From the IMG/VR virus record IMGVR_UViG_3300020727_000702: a DNA stretch of 64,000 nt. One strand, written 5' to 3'. The stretch is from an uncultured virus (IMG/VR IMGVR_UViG_3300020727_000702). Lineage: Duplodnaviria; Heunggongvirae; Uroviricota; Caudoviricetes. The position numbers and the translations under genes were made by a program. How positions within the stretch are numbered: position 1 is the first letter of the stretch; every line of letters begins with the position of its first letter. The notes under the pieces are model-generated. The model saw nothing but the letters and a program-made list of their open reading frames with translations. It had not been told where the DNA came from and ran no database searches. Positions 19,137 to 25,150 of this stretch are shown here, in pieces.

Positions 19137-19496
19137 ATGAGTAAGCCAGTATTTTCAGATTTATTTAAATTTAGCGGTCGTCGTAATCGTCAATCTTATA
19201 TTTTATTAAAATTGTTTTATTTTTTAATATTTTGGATTGCGGTGGCATTATCGACCACAATGATTATGACAGTGCCTGTACTTGGATTCATTCTTTGGAT
19301 GGCCATAGGCATTGGTTTAATTGCCGCAGCAATTTCTGTTATAGCGGCAACAACACAACGTATTCGTGATTTTGGGCAAAGCGGGGTATGGGTATTGTTG
19401 TTGTTAATCCCATATGTTGGGTTAGCGTTTGCTCTTGCTCTTTGGTTCATCCCCAGTTCAAAAGGCGATAACAAATACGGATCAAGCTGTATTTAA
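19137..19496 (+). CDS. DUF805 family membrane protein
   Basis: FSGRRNRQSY..QRIRDFGQSGVWVLLLLIPYVG..GDNKYG. Confidence 0.85.
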   Translation: MSKPVFSDLFKFSGRRNRQSYILLKLFYFLIFWIAVALSTTMIMTVPVLGFILWMAIGIGLIAAAISVIAATTQRIRDFGQSGVWVLLLLIPYVGLAFALALWFIPSSKGDNKYGSSCI

Positions 19497-20320: not shown

Positions 20321-20509
20321 ATGTCAACACATGAACAACTATTAGCAGCAATTGAAACATACAAAGCCGAAAATGAAAAATTTACAGGCAAAGGCGTTAA
20401 AGCCGCCGCCGCTCGTGCTCGTAAAGCACTACAAGAAATCAGCAAAGGTTGTAAGGCACGCCGTGCTGAAATTACTGAAGAAAAAAACTCATTAGCAGCC
20501 GCAAAATAA
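20321..20509 (+). CDS. Histone H1-like Hc1 family protein
   Basis: ENEKFTGKGVKAAAARARKALQEISKGCKARRAEI; upstream TTGACT-N16-TATAAT and AAGGA SD. Confidence 0.75.
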   Translation: MSTHEQLLAAIETYKAENEKFTGKGVKAAAARARKALQEISKGCKARRAEITEEKNSLAAAK

Positions 20510-20510
20510 T

Positions 20511-20681
20511 ATGACTCGCTACGAGTGGATACAAGCTCTTGTTGAGGATCCAGAGCATCCAGGTGAATTATTACTGGACCTCGGCAATGAGTTGTGTGAA
20601 TACCTTGATTGGAAAGAAGGTGACACACTGGATTGGATTGATAATAAGGACGGTACATGGACGATACGAAAGAAGACTTAA
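20511..20681 (+). CDS. AbrB/MazE-like small protein (56 aa, not in track)
   Basis: VEDPEHPGELLLDLGNELCEYLDWKEGDTLDWIDNKDGTWTIRK. Confidence 0.55.
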   Translation: MTRYEWIQALVEDPEHPGELLLDLGNELCEYLDWKEGDTLDWIDNKDGTWTIRKKT

Positions 20682-21247
20682 ATTTAGATATAAAAGAACT
20701 GCTAGACAAACTTAGGACTGTTGACGTGAACAAAAGTGCTTCTTCATCAGCAGATGTATCCACAAATGATGCCTGTTATGATAGCAGTCCATACATTTAT
20801 AATAATGCGTCTGATACTATTACCTTAAGTGGGAGTGAGTTAACTAATGGTGGGTCAACAATACTAAATCCCGGCGGGCTTACAGGATCATACGGGCAAG
20901 TTTATACCGCAAGCTCTGGTCTTGGTGGTACTTACAGTAATACCTCGCCCTGGGCAACCAGCACAGGCACTGCAAGTCCTTGGGTCACTAATACCACTCT
21001 AAAAGGCGGACAACTAGAACTCGAAGGCAAAGATGCCGATATTATTATAGATGGTAAAAGTTTGCTTGATACACTGGCAGCCTTAGAAGAACGATTAAAC
21101 CTATTGGTTCCCAATCCTGAAATGGAAAAGGAATGGGACCAACTTAAACGGTTAGGTGACCGGTATCGTAAGTTAGAAAAAAAACTTAAAGAACAAAGTG
21201 ACATGTGGAACAAACTAAAATCCATGCCACCTCCAGAAATATATTAG
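20657..21247 (+). CDS. Hypothetical protein (S/T/G-rich middle, coiled-coil C-terminus)
   Basis: ORF track. Confidence 0.6.
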   Translation: MDDTKEDLNLDIKELLDKLRTVDVNKSASSSADVSTNDACYDSSPYIYNNASDTITLSGSELTNGGSTILNPGGLTGSYGQVYTASSGLGGTYSNTSPWATSTGTASPWVTNTTLKGGQLELEGKDADIIIDGKSLLDTLAALEERLNLLVPNPEMEKEWDQLKRLGDRYRKLEKKLKEQSDMWNKLKSMPPPEIY

Positions 21248-21329
21248 TAGTTAATAGCAAAAAGACATCGAAATGATTGCTTTTTTACAAGTTCTGTAAT
21301 AAAATTAGTAAGTATTAATAGTAGCGAAC

Positions 21330-21591
21330 ACCGGACGGGCTTGATGCCGGAATATAAATGTAAGTCACGCCCAGTTAATAAGGTTTGTCCAAGTCTTATT
21401 AACTGTTCGAAAGAGGACTTCGGAACTCCTCTTCGTTGACAACTTAGAATTGTTTACACTCACTACAATTTATCGGACACAAGTGTAAACCAGGAAGAAG
21501 TATGCCAAAGAAGGCCGAGGTCTCGTATCTACACTTCTCCTTTTTAATTTGTCAATGTGCTCATCCTGAGCATCCGCCGAAACGGTCCGGT
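21330..21591 (+). ncRNA. Candidate large structured RNA / 5' leader
   Basis: Terminal ACCGGAC/GTCCGGT helix closing at least 7 internal helices; TAAGTA at 21309. Confidence 0.6.
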
Positions 21592-21611
21592 TGAACCGAA
21601 GGAGAACGACA

Positions 21612-22295
21612 ATGAAGAATATCTTATTATCGTTATTAATAGCATTAGGCAGTACCGCAGTAGTAGCACAAGAATACCAAGTAGCAGATTTAAAAGCAGA
21701 AGTAACATTTAAAGATCACGTGATTAACCAAGCCACAAGTTTTGTGGAATCAACAGTTAATATGATCGCAACACCATTCTTATCCGACAAGGATGTAGAA
21801 TGTTTAGCTCGTAATATATTTTATGAAGCTGGCGGCGAACCTATAGAAGGCAAAGCAGCAGTTGGAATAGTTACACTTAACCGCACTCAAGATGACAGAT
21901 ATCCACAAACCGTATGCGGTGTAGTTAAACAACGTACTGTATTATCAGTACCACATCGAGTAAAAGAAGTTAAAACTATTAAAACTGATTGGCTAAGCCC
22001 TCCAAAACAAGTTGTTGAAGTTAAAACAACTTGGGTACAAAAAACCATTTATCAATTTAGTTGGGTTGGACAACGCAATATCAAAATTCGTGAAGACGAT
22101 CCACGCTGGATAGAATCCCGAGCAGTAGCCGAAGAGTTAGCTCGTGGTGGATATGAAACGTGGCAAGAAAAATATGAAAATGCAAAAAATTTCCACGCGG
22201 TTTATGTACATCCGGGCTGGAAATTAAAGCGTATTGGCCGGGTAGGTAACCATATCTTCTACGAAGGCACAACTCCTATTCAGCGGGGCGGTTGA
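21612..22295 (+). CDS. Cell wall hydrolase, SleB/Hydrolase_2 family, with signal peptide
   Basis: ECLARNIFYEAGGEPIEGKAAVGIVTLNR..YPQTVCGVV..QFSW..GNHIFY. Confidence 0.9.
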   Translation: MKNILLSLLIALGSTAVVAQEYQVADLKAEVTFKDHVINQATSFVESTVNMIATPFLSDKDVECLARNIFYEAGGEPIEGKAAVGIVTLNRTQDDRYPQTVCGVVKQRTVLSVPHRVKEVKTIKTDWLSPPKQVVEVKTTWVQKTIYQFSWVGQRNIKIREDDPRWIESRAVAEELARGGYETWQEKYENAKNFHAVYVHPGWKLKRIGRVGNHIFYEGTTPIQRGG

Positions 22296-22320
22296 CAATA
22301 AATCCCAAGTTTGTTATAAT
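22292..22320 (+). promoter_or_regulatory. Consensus sigma70 promoter
   Basis: TTGACA-N17-TATAAT. Confidence 0.8.
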
Positions 22321-22352
22321 AGTAGTATGAATAGCAAATTTGGATTGATTTG

Positions 22353-22748
22353 ATGACGATGCATTTGGAAGGGCCGTGGTTAAGCACTACAGGCAAACAA
22401 AAGACCAAACGTAAGTGGACAAGTTCTGAAGCTAAGAAGTTAGCTGAAAAACGACAAGCTGAGTGGGATCGCAAGTTAGTTGAGTTTGATAAACTTGCTC
22501 CCAAATTCAGCACTGGGCCTTACAATGCTCCCCGAAAAACTATGGCAGATTTCATGCCCAAAACTCCCCCGGGTCGTGAAACTCCTCGAGTTCAATCACA
22601 GGACACAGGATGGGTGGCTTGTGTAAAAGTTAAGGATAACGAATATACTGGTGATGCTGTAGTCGGAATAGCGCAAATGGCAAAATCTAATGCAGTCCCT
22701 GTATTTGACTCTGACCATATTGTAGAGATCGCTAGGATGCGGCGATAA
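22353..22748 (+). CDS. Conserved T4-like phage hypothetical protein
   Basis: YTGDAVVGIAQMAKSNAVPVF..EIARMRR. Confidence 0.65.
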   Translation: MTMHLEGPWLSTTGKQKTKRKWTSSEAKKLAEKRQAEWDRKLVEFDKLAPKFSTGPYNAPRKTMADFMPKTPPGRETPRVQSQDTGWVACVKVKDNEYTGDAVVGIAQMAKSNAVPVFDSDHIVEIARMRR

Positions 22749-22791
22749 TATTTACACAGGTAATAAGATGATAGGGATAAATAAAGTTACT

Positions 22792-23682
22792 ATGAGTAAA
22801 CCATTTAAACCTACCACACTTTATATCAAGACCCATAATGTTACGGGACTTAAATATTTTGGCAAAACAACAGGAAACCCATTTGAATACCGCGGCTCCG
22901 GGATCTATTGGACGGCACACCTTAAAAAACATGGCAATGATATTACTACAGAAATTCTAGGTTATTATACTGATAAAGACGAATGCATACAAGCCGCTAA
23001 TTTGTTCTCTACTGAAAATAATATTGTTAAGGCCGTGAACGAAAATAATAAAAAGATATGGGCTAATCAAATTATCGAAAACGGCATCGATGGAGGAGCA
23101 ACTTGGTTCGGCCCGCGCCCAAGAGAAATGGTGGAAAGAATCGCCGCGAAACAACGAGGAGTACCAAAATCATTACCTCCTGAAGTAGCTAAAGCCGCCG
23201 CAGAAAAGGGATTGGCTACACGAGCAAAAAATGGAACTCTTCGAAAAAAAGGTGAGTGGAAATTCCCTGAAGCAAGTAAGCAAAAGTTAAGAGACGCTAA
23301 TTTAGGCAAAAAACAATCCAAAGAAACTATTGAAAAGCGCCGAGCTAACTTAATAGGAAAAAAACGTCCCGAAGTGGCAGCAAAGTTACGTGGCAGAACA
23401 CATACACTAGAAGCTAGAGCTAATATGAAAGCGGCCCAACAAAATAAAGGGCCGTTAACTAAAGAAACCAAGCAAAAAATAAAAGCGGCACGAGCAAAAC
23501 AGCAGAATGTTAAATCGTGGGGCGAACAAAATCAAGGCAAAGTAATAGTTATCGATAAAGAAGGAATAATGAGTCGAATACCAAAAGAACAGTATTATGC
23601 TCAAACGGGTCCAAAAAATGATTGGGAATGGTTAAGTCATAAATCAGCCGATGCTAACGCTCGTAAGCTAAGTAAAATATAG
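22792..23682 (+). mobile_element. Free-standing GIY-YIG homing endonuclease gene with NUMOD3-like repeats
   Basis: LYIKTHNVTGLKYFGKT..YRGSGIYW..WAN; repeats such as GKKQSKETIEK and GRTHTLEARANM; TAAATA upstream. Confidence 0.8.
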
Positions 23683-24472: not shown

Positions 24473-24502
24473 CATAAATACTTGTGGGAACACACAAGAA
24501 CA

Positions 24503-25150
24503 ATGTCAAAAAATTATAGAAAAGTATTTGAACGTTATCATCAATGTTGTTTATTACCGGGTGTAGATATACATCATATAGACGGCGATCATAACAATAA
24601 CCATCCTGAAAATTTACAAGCAGTTACATTACAAGAGCATTATGATATTCATAAATCTCAAAATGATCATTATGCCTGTTACATGATTGCTACTCGTATG
24701 GATATTAAACCAAACGATTGGATAGAAATGGCAAGGATCAATGGCCGTAAGTCAGCTATTAAAAACAAAGATAACGGAATTGGATTATTATCTTGGATAA
24801 AAAACAATCCTGAATTAGCACAAAAACAAAGATCAGATAGCGGAAAAGTTGGCGGCAAAAAATGTGCTGATGAAAAGATTGGATTCCATGGGTTATCTAA
24901 AGAACAAAAATTAGAAATAGCATCGCAAGGTGGTAAGAAAGCCGCTGAACTTGGATTGGGATTTAAGGCAGGACACGCATCTCAGGCAGGTAGAGTTGGT
25001 GGTAAGAAAGGCGGGCAATGGGCCAAAGAAAACAAGTCAGGAATTTTTGCTCTCACACCTGAGCAAATAAAAGCAAAAAATCAAAAAGCGGCAATAACTA
25101 AACTTATTAAAAACGGCAAAGCCTGTCGTTATCCAAAGGAAACCATATGA
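24503..25150 (+). mobile_element. Free-standing HNH homing endonuclease gene
   Basis: DIHHIDGDHNNNHPENLQAVTLQEHYDIH; C-terminal GKxGG repeats. Confidence 0.8.

Follow-up and report, generated by a model that had tools for sequence, protein, structure and literature searches.

The gap between two open reading frames (ORFs) of 196 and 227 amino acids (aa), at positions 21248-21611 of a 64,000-nucleotide (nt) stretch of DNA from an uncultured Caudoviricetes virus (IMG/VR record IMGVR_UViG_3300020727_000702; the whole stretch is called the window below), raises the question of what lies there and what it does for the gene that follows. The 227-aa ORF encodes a SleB-type cell wall hydrolase (Pfam PF07486 Hydrolase_2/SleB, E 4e-16; PHROG endolysin phrog_938, E 5.5e-15) whose N-terminus is a signal-peptide-like segment. 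An initial annotation, made from the letters of the window, had proposed that a large structured non-coding RNA (ncRNA) tied to this peptidoglycan hydrolase gene occupies positions 21309-21612. Compensatory base changes among relatives, together with strict linkage to SleB-type genes, now bear this proposal out, and the comparisons identify the stretch as a member of an uncatalogued family of conserved structured RNAs with a pseudoknotted core of ~165 nt that includes invariant unpaired nucleotides. The RNA always spans the interval from a TAAGTA box to the ribosome binding site (RBS) of a SleB-type exported endolysin gene. With a probability of roughly 0.6, we take it to be the 5′ leader of the endolysin mRNA, acting in cis to control translation of the lysis enzyme.

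Relatives were collected in several scans. A protein-guided scan returned one virus whose hydrolase is 69% identical to that of the window and whose upstream gap can be aligned with it, with compensatory changes visible. Scanning with the motif of hairpin B yielded 30 viral loci, and the pattern GUAUG.CA...CCGAGGUCU yielded 81, of which 46 carried the family signature; a pattern running from the 3′ strand of hairpin B through helix P4 to GUAUG returned 46 loci, all belonging to the family and 4 of them on new contigs. A metagenome scan found at least 120 loci, and among the 120 listed, 117 were family members that added 71 new distinct sequences. In all, 119 distinct versions of the leader RNA were analysed, from uncultured, mostly freshwater, viral and metagenome contigs. 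Because the search patterns fix bases, the invariance of the hairpin B 3′ strand, of UUGACAA and of GUAUG is partly a matter of construction, as is that of CCGAGGUCU (in two scans); the window, for its part, had no role in choosing the hits of the later patterns. The elements follow one another in a set order: hairpin B with a YUCGG loop, CRUUGACA(A), hairpin C, GUAUG.CA...CCGAGGUCU, UGUCAAYG, hairpin D, UCCG, pseudoknot 2 (PK2; likewise PK1 and PK3 below), the Shine-Dalgarno sequence (SD) and the SleB-type gene. Every one of them is present in the window, in this order. Leader lengths range from 196 to 359 nt, and the smallest members (196-240 nt) retain the whole core.

The association with the endolysin gene is equally regular. 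A SleB-type gene lies directly downstream in 31 of 31 loci, with a spacer of 6-7 nt between SD and start codon, and 16 of 16 further loci show the same gene and spacer; the SleB motif NI[YF]xE was found in all 98 loci with at least 85 aa readable downstream. Among these loci (31, 16 and 98), the leader RNA was not seen apart from a SleB-type gene. Two hydrolase types follow it, one of ~186 aa with an N-terminal membrane anchor and mostly a TTG start, the other of ~220 aa with a signal peptide; TTG starts are frequent overall (23/31 and 55/118 loci). In the ~186-aa type, a local hairpin of 5-6 base pairs (bp), formed with codons 4-6, includes the start codon, which is usually UUG, for example UUGAAG-ACAU-CUUCAA, UUGAAA..UUUCAA or UUGAA/UUCAG (L004-L033, L290-L404; alignment A4, columns 326-350), and in nested folding the start codon pairs chiefly with the coding region (21.7 of ~34 paired mass). 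Short ORFs of 30-32 aa do occur within the stretch, for which the initial annotation had found no listed ORF; across the family, no ORF inside the leader is constant in place, strand or length.

The RNA matches no catalogued family. Rfam 15 (4227 models) gave no match at the gathering threshold in the 64-kb window and none at E up to 10 in region 21100-21800, and in seven typical relatives it produced only two sub-threshold chance matches (23.2 against a threshold of 46 bits, and 20.1 against 50 bits). ARAGORN detected no transfer RNA or transfer-messenger RNA gene in 20500-22500. This agrees with the initial view that the stretch does not look like a tRNA or tmRNA, and a full-text literature search, screened at the level of result lists, returned no description of the leader.

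Evidence for the fold comes from alignment A4, which comprises 78 typical members and was evaluated with a 64-pair model. Standard pairs fill 94.9% of cells compared with 87.5% when partners are shuffled (0/500 shuffles reach the observed value), and double-sided changes occur in 29 of 64 pairs compared with 18.8 in shuffles (0/500), controls that overstate significance insofar as the members are kin. Sliding the partners by 1-3 columns lowered pairing to 31-40%, and a 27-sequence set, A3, agrees with these results. The counts for individual helices are clear (Table 1), and we regard the comparative evidence as decisive for the fold. Thermodynamics alone says little, since folding of the minus strand scores similarly (z -2.09). 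The exact span 21309-21612 is only modestly more stable than shuffles, with -78.7 kcal/mol and a z of -1.75, 5 of 100 shuffles being equal or better; the core 21328-21593 reaches a z of -3.91 with 0 of 200. That the plus strand is the RNA strand follows from the linked gene and from conserved G-U pairs, whose counterparts on the opposite strand would be A-C (GU in 76/78 at columns 286-301; UG in 76 at columns 136-220). A rise in GC content over the flanks had also been noted; it is real but slight (0.385-0.44 compared with 0.35-0.385).

The conserved structure includes three pseudoknots that the initial annotation had overlooked. An alignment-free search located PK2, an H-type pseudoknot, at the homologous position of 47 among 48 members, and a stricter score recovered it in 100 of 117 compared with 85 of 585 shuffled tails; its first stem occurs in 10 variants and its second in 25-27 distinct complementary ones. 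In 94 of 100 members, 1-3 nt separate the end of stem 2 from the SD core; in the window stem 2 stops 2 nt short of the SD, closer than the ~10 nt at which the RNA had been thought to end. PK3 joins bases 5′ of hairpin A with the hairpin's conserved loop UGCCG, typically as ACGG/CCGU. Its core pairs in 78 sequences are C-G in 76 and G-C in 2, G-C in 77 and A-U in 1, and G-C in 78, all three changes being compensated; the changed sequences read ACAG/CUGU, AGGG/CCCU and AGGG/CCCC, and other groups form it as CCGAAC/GUUCGG, CCGGA/UCCGG, CCGGU/ACCGG or CUCGG/CCGAG. PK1 pairs the loop of hairpin B, in which UCGG is kept in 119/119, with a site inside the P4 domain. UCGG/CCGA is retained in 118 of 119 members, the remaining sequence having a deletion there, and a fifth pair is formed in 109 of 119 (U-G 89, C-G 17, G-U 2, A-U 1; 10 mismatches), with a partner U occurring only opposite a loop G or A (3/3 distinct sequences; 5/5 loci). 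These data appear compatible with PK1 but test it weakly.

The same B loop is also perfectly complementary to CCGAAG (21596-21601), which overlaps the SD, in the window and a few relatives. As a general feature this pairing was rejected, being confined to the window, L003, L008, L019, L020 and sequences like them; where present, it would be an SD-occluding competitor of PK1 that is not family-wide.

A further tertiary contact, the kissing loop between hairpins A2 and C, had been predicted from complementary TGTCC and GGACA loops, and is borne out by co-occurrence. Of 119 sequences, 25 have both the A2-loop motif and a GGAC within hairpin C, and 92 have neither; GGAC occurs alone in 2 and the A2 motif alone in none. 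The pairing varies as UGUCC/GGACA, UUUGUCC/GGACAAA, UGUCC/GGACG and CGUCCA/UGGACG, with U-A, U-G and C-G variants of a pair, and is reduced to GUCC/GGAC in two sequences. The stems of A2 and of C are unrelated between groups, yet A2 is always accompanied by GGAC in hairpin C, and the A2 loop can close further into a GUCC tetraloop, which leaves its exact size ambiguous. Most relatives have no A2 and instead carry a conserved GAAACAAA in the C loop, which contains GAAA, and a 5′ domain of helices P1 and P2. In effect, subfamilies exchange the peripheral contact while the core stays constant, and swapped peripheral modules are typical of RNAs selected for three-dimensional shape.

The remaining helices vary in sequence and keep their pairing. 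Seven or more complementary versions of the hairpin B stem occur in the different groups; that of the window is GAGGA/TCCTC. P4 surrounds hairpin C, a linker rich in pyrimidines and the conserved segment GUAUG.CA...CCGAGGUCU; its strands read CAUUGACA/UGUCAAUG in some subfamilies and CGUUGACA/UGUCAACG in others, with additional G-U forms, and the TTGACAA/TTGTCAA of the window shows A-U, G-C and G-U variants in relatives. A candidate GGC/GCC mini-hairpin in the conserved segment is ambiguous, with a middle G-C pair in 19 of 27 sequences and no pair there in 8, possibly reflecting a register shift. In one group (group X: L035, L046, L049, L068, L083, L086, L090, L105), an invariant ACUCGGG stands where a clear hairpin D would be expected and is complementary to CCCGAG, the 3′ strand of PK1; in this group, 9-10 bp can also form between the A2 loop, GUUUGUCCAA, and the hairpin C 5′ strand. 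These extra complementarities may represent alternative pairings.

At the 5′ edge, each of the 44 members with sufficient upstream sequence carries the TAAGTA box, in keeping with the earlier view that the RNA starts after it, and TAAGTATTTT, the region of the box, is at least 90% conserved in the 78 typical members. TAAGTA is depleted in the 64-kb window on both strands (29 found, 54.6 +/- 6.9 expected), which is consistent with a signal avoided elsewhere. Transcription would start just after the box, a promoter function that we infer. Several plus-strand copies lie 35-55 nt ahead of SD-start pairs (18638, 20283). A second conserved element, TATAATATATGTATATTATGG followed by AAAAA..TATCAAAA, is found in typical loci ~70-95 nt upstream of TAAGTA (e.g. 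L037, L065, L295, L305, L363) and includes a TATAAT-like hexamer and a possible micro-ORF (MxKxYQ...); positions 21250-21290 of the window are a weaker counterpart. The element may act as a further promoter or encode a leader peptide.

How might such an RNA act? According to our model, the RNA would begin just past the TAAGTA box and form a chain of domains without a long-range closing helix, in the window PK3, A2, B, the P4 domain (hairpin C and the conserved single-stranded segment), D and PK2. The kissing loop between A2 and C, and PK1 between the B loop and CCGAGG in P4, would draw these domains into one compact body, which would govern translation initiation of an exported, potentially lethal enzyme through the SD-proximal region. 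In one state PK2 would be formed and the SD free; in the other, the UCC just 5′ of PK2 would pair with GGA of the SD around the hairpin of PK2 stem 2 and thereby mask it. Of 100 members scored, 89 carry UCCG ahead of PK2 stem 1. When 48 leaders were subjected to nested folding, only 11 left the SD more than 50% unpaired, and the pairing mass of the SD fell mostly just 5′ of PK2, at UCC(G) (18.7 of ~29). Since the UCC:GGA stem and PK2 stem 1 are mutually exclusive, a two-state platform is plausible. The balance could be shifted by a small molecule, which would make the RNA a riboswitch, or by a phage or host protein, the two being equally possible.

By covariation and position, the RNA is a conserved structured element of the 5′ untranslated region ahead of the gene it would regulate, as riboswitches are. 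We entertain tentatively, as a possibility that falls well short of even odds, that it is a new riboswitch class or ligand-dependent ribozyme timing translation of the exported endolysin, in which case the sensed signal might be a small molecule that stems from the host or from infection, for instance a precursor of the cell wall, a nucleotide second messenger or an indicator of energy state. If true, the RNA would constitute a lysis clock that works either apart from holin control or in addition to it.

Several observations weigh against translational control by this leader. The SD lies outside PK2, and four members (group Y) have a mere hairpin at the place of PK2. The candidate UCC:GGA stem is short (3-4 bp), is weakened in the variants AUCC, CCCC, AGCC and UUCG, and is one to which covariation is blind because the SD is fixed; the SD of the window is itself predicted to be mostly unpaired (0.75). 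PK1 is without clean covariation, 10 of 119 sequences are mismatched at its one variable pair and its invariance is partly forced by the search patterns, so that its proof is weak. To these points the kinship of the members, noted above, must be added. Finally, a long-range closing helix CGGA/UCCG, which would have supplied the classic P1 logic of riboswitches, fails, with no double changes.

That same helix was rejected as part of the fold: it is unpaired in three changed sequences, whose changes are nevertheless compensated in PK3. Since the candidate closing helices fail, the conserved RNA is a string of domains tied by tertiary pairings, which bears on the closed multibranch fold of the initial annotation. 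All helices that it listed are present at the coordinates it gave, and seven of its nine structural elements are supported (A, A2, B, C, D, P4 and the kissing loop); the two that are not are the closing helix ACCGGAC 21330-21336/GTCCGGT 21585-21591 and the inner helix AGGAAGAAGT/ACTTCTCCT. The closing helix reuses bases of both stems of the covarying PK2 and of PK3, shrinks to 4 bp in the nearest relatives (L003, L288, L367) and is absent in L315, while the inner helix is a composition effect, scoring no better than shuffled linkers across 48 members (best-duplex score 4.91 compared with 4.84). The closed fold is thus not the conserved architecture. It might still operate in the window phage itself, as both helices belong to the minimum-energy fold and the closing helix, of 7 bp, could represent another conformer in competition with PK2 and PK3, but given the points above we consider this improbable. 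Two further candidates were rejected, namely a triplex of the pyrimidine linker on the purine strand of hairpin B (4.04 compared with 3.92; p<=0.05 in the window only, 1/48) and pairing of a GGAGGA in the 5′ domain with CUCCG or with the hairpin B 3′ strand, where changes are uncompensated in the alignments.

The fold could also serve ends other than switching. A constitutive leader would never change its fold, shielding the 5′ end of a late mRNA from decay and holding the SD and a weak start codon at a constant low level of translation; the base-paired 5′ end of most members (P1), the mostly open SD predicted for the window, the frequent TTG starts and the fact that no alternative pairing is proven are all in keeping with this. 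However, maintaining three pseudoknots, the kissing loop and long unpaired stretches of invariant sequence in 119 diverged members goes far beyond what stability or spacing needs, and even the minimal members keep the whole core, which makes a purely constitutive role rather unlikely in our view. A free-standing ncRNA acting in trans, as a decoy or ribonucleoprotein component, might merely share the promoter region of the hydrolase, and its size, its tertiary complexity, like that of large orphan bacterial ncRNAs, and the conserved box at its 5′ edge would suit such a role. Against it, no terminator separates the RNA from the hydrolase gene, the structure approaches the SD as closely as described above, and the RNA occurs in single copy per genome and always with a SleB-type gene where examined, so that we judge this very unlikely. 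The compact core with its invariant unpaired nucleotides might instead be catalytic, self-cleaving or otherwise, and process the endolysin transcript; glmS-type ribozymes are in a similar range of size and complexity. Rfam 15, however, contains no matching ribozyme even at the relaxed E-value, no conserved candidate cleavage site was identified, and a catalytic role is hard to credit. Position and the SD-adjacent pseudoknot favour a translational leader over a free ncRNA or a ribozyme.

Known systems offer partial parallels to such a translational leader. The preQ1-II, SAM-II/SAM-V and fluoride riboswitches are translational, have a pseudoknot at or beside the SD and are all in Rfam. Like them, the leader places an H-type pseudoknot beside the RBS and combines conserved unpaired nucleotides with covarying stems; unlike them, it has no Rfam match and is 4-8 times larger, and its PK2 stops short of the SD rather than containing it as in the preQ1-II and SAM-II type. 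The cobalamin riboswitch and other large junction RNAs have interchangeable peripheral contacts, and the leader resembles the cobalamin riboswitch in its kissing loop and in peripheral modules that vary by subfamily around a constant core, but there is no sequence or model similarity and the leader is without a closing P1-type helix.

Among operators, that of E. coli rpsO (S15) exchanges a pseudoknot for a double hairpin at the initiation region, and the T4 gene 32 leader also forms a pseudoknot. Two papers deal with these pseudoknot operators (PMC3985624, PMC3014915). The operators share with the leader a pseudoknot near the start, an alternative fold that alters ribosome access and control of the gene immediately downstream; however, they are short and bind the product of their own gene, whereas the leader measures ~165-330 nt, has three pseudoknots and precedes a gene whose product is an exported hydrolase without sign of RNA binding. 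In T4, the leaders of gene e (lysozyme), soc and I-TevI carry a late promoter within a hairpin that masks the SD. Gene e is a case of translational control of a lysis enzyme by mRNA structure, as is proposed for the leader, but here the TAAGTA box lies upstream of all conserved helices, and therefore promoter choice cannot remove half a hairpin; no sigma-70-like site was found on the plus strand inside the RNA. A structured leader controlling peptidoglycan hydrolase genes is the ydaO/c-di-AMP riboswitch of Actinobacteria (PMC9960051); the present leader is a different RNA, given the lack of an Rfam match, and precedes a phage rather than a cellular gene. In function, the closest systems are riboswitches and operators with a pseudoknot next to the SD, along with the leader of T4 gene e, and the present family lacks their defining features.

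Table 1. Elements of the leader RNA and the gene that follows it, in window coordinates, with the number of pairs changed on both sides in alignment A4.
Feature	Position	Strand	Sequence or parts	Pairs changed on both sides	Remark
TAAGTA box	21309..21314	+			promoter-like; 5′ edge of RNA
P1				3/7	
P2				2/5	
PK3 stem 1	21331..21350	+	CCGG 21331-21334 / CCGG 21347-21350		3′ part in hairpin A loop
Hairpin A (PK3 stem 2)	21337..21372	+	GGGCTTGA/TCACGCCC, 7/8 pairs	4/5	
Hairpin A2	21373..21404	+	AGTTAATAAGG/TCTTATTAACT, loop UUUGUCCAAG		z -4.12 alone
Kissing loop	21386-21390 / 21475-21479	+	UGUCC (A2 loop) / GGACA (C loop)		
Hairpin B	21408..21435	+	CGAA-A-GAGGA/TCCTCTTCG, loop CUUCGGAAC		
PK1	21418-21423 / 21515-21520	+	CUUCGG (B loop) / CCGAGG		
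P4 domain	21434..21557	+	CGTTGACAA (21434-21442) / TTGTCAATG (21549-21557)		
Hairpin C	21452..21490	+	GTTTACACT/AGTGTAAAC	6/8	6-7/8 aligned pairs covary in typical members
Conserved segment	21500..21523	+	GUAUGCCAAAGAAGGCCGAGGUCU		holds PK1 3′ half
Hairpin D	21558..21572	+	TGCTCA-TCC-TGAGCA	4/5	z -3.08 alone
UCCG	21573..21576	+	UCC opposite SD GGA		conserved; candidate anti-SD
PK2 (H-type)	21576..21598	+			
PK2 stem 1		+	GCCG 21576-21579 / CGGT 21588-21591	2/4	CG 50 / GC 27 at one pair
PK2 stem 2		+	CGGT 21583-21586 / ACCG 21595-21598	5/5	
SD and start of hydrolase gene	21599..21614	+	AAGGAG 21599-21604; ATG at 21612		
SleB-type cell wall hydrolase, 227 aa	21612..22295	+			putatively regulated gene; PF07486, phrog_938

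The three outcomes against which the initial annotation had set its proposal, namely folding at the level of shuffled sequence, lack of conservation in relatives and an existing Rfam match, were not observed. As to the range of the family, neither the window nor a typical RNA had a blastn match among 50,697 records of cultured phages; the hydrolase has cultured relatives of ~30% identity at best, and the leader motifs are absent upstream of the SleB genes of Xanthomonas phage BUDD and Stenotrophomonas phages DLP_6 and Bhz51. A scan of genome contigs, which makes no claim about absence from bacteria, returned, among the 120 matches listed, 119 that do not belong to the family and one true member (L266); most of the non-family matches inspected fall in a conserved gene that we take to be ATP synthase beta. 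L266 consists of a typical RNA and a hydrolase start on a 2,370-base contig (CAITCX010000170.1) assigned to a Dehalococcoidia metagenome-assembled genome from lake sediment, and is most likely a phage fragment wrongly binned there.

The viral record that holds the window is 96.8 kb long, with a CheckV completeness of 28%, and contains one copy of the leader RNA. Five related records of 317-349 kb, 89-100% complete and with terminal repeats in two, contain one full copy each; the virus carrying the window is therefore a jumbo phage. The DNA runs in which the stretch occurs are labelled freshwater or freshwater sediment. Neighbouring genes in the window encode a DUF805 membrane protein (19137-19496) and an Hc1 histone H1-like protein (20321-20509; PF07432, E 7.7e-14), and two homing-endonuclease-like ORFs lie downstream (22768-23682, phrog_314; 24482-25150, HNH families).

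The timing of lysis decides phage fitness, and for endolysins exported through the host Sec system, control has to act before or at synthesis. If our interpretation is true, a conserved three-pseudoknot RNA at the translation start of the endolysin would give lysis control a new layer. The phages in which this leader family occurs form an abundant freshwater clade of uncultured jumbo phages. Its unusually complex orphan fold, new to the RNA catalogues, provides a substrate for structural and ligand-discovery work, and the peripheral contacts swapped between its subfamilies are natural variants for testing how such folds are built.

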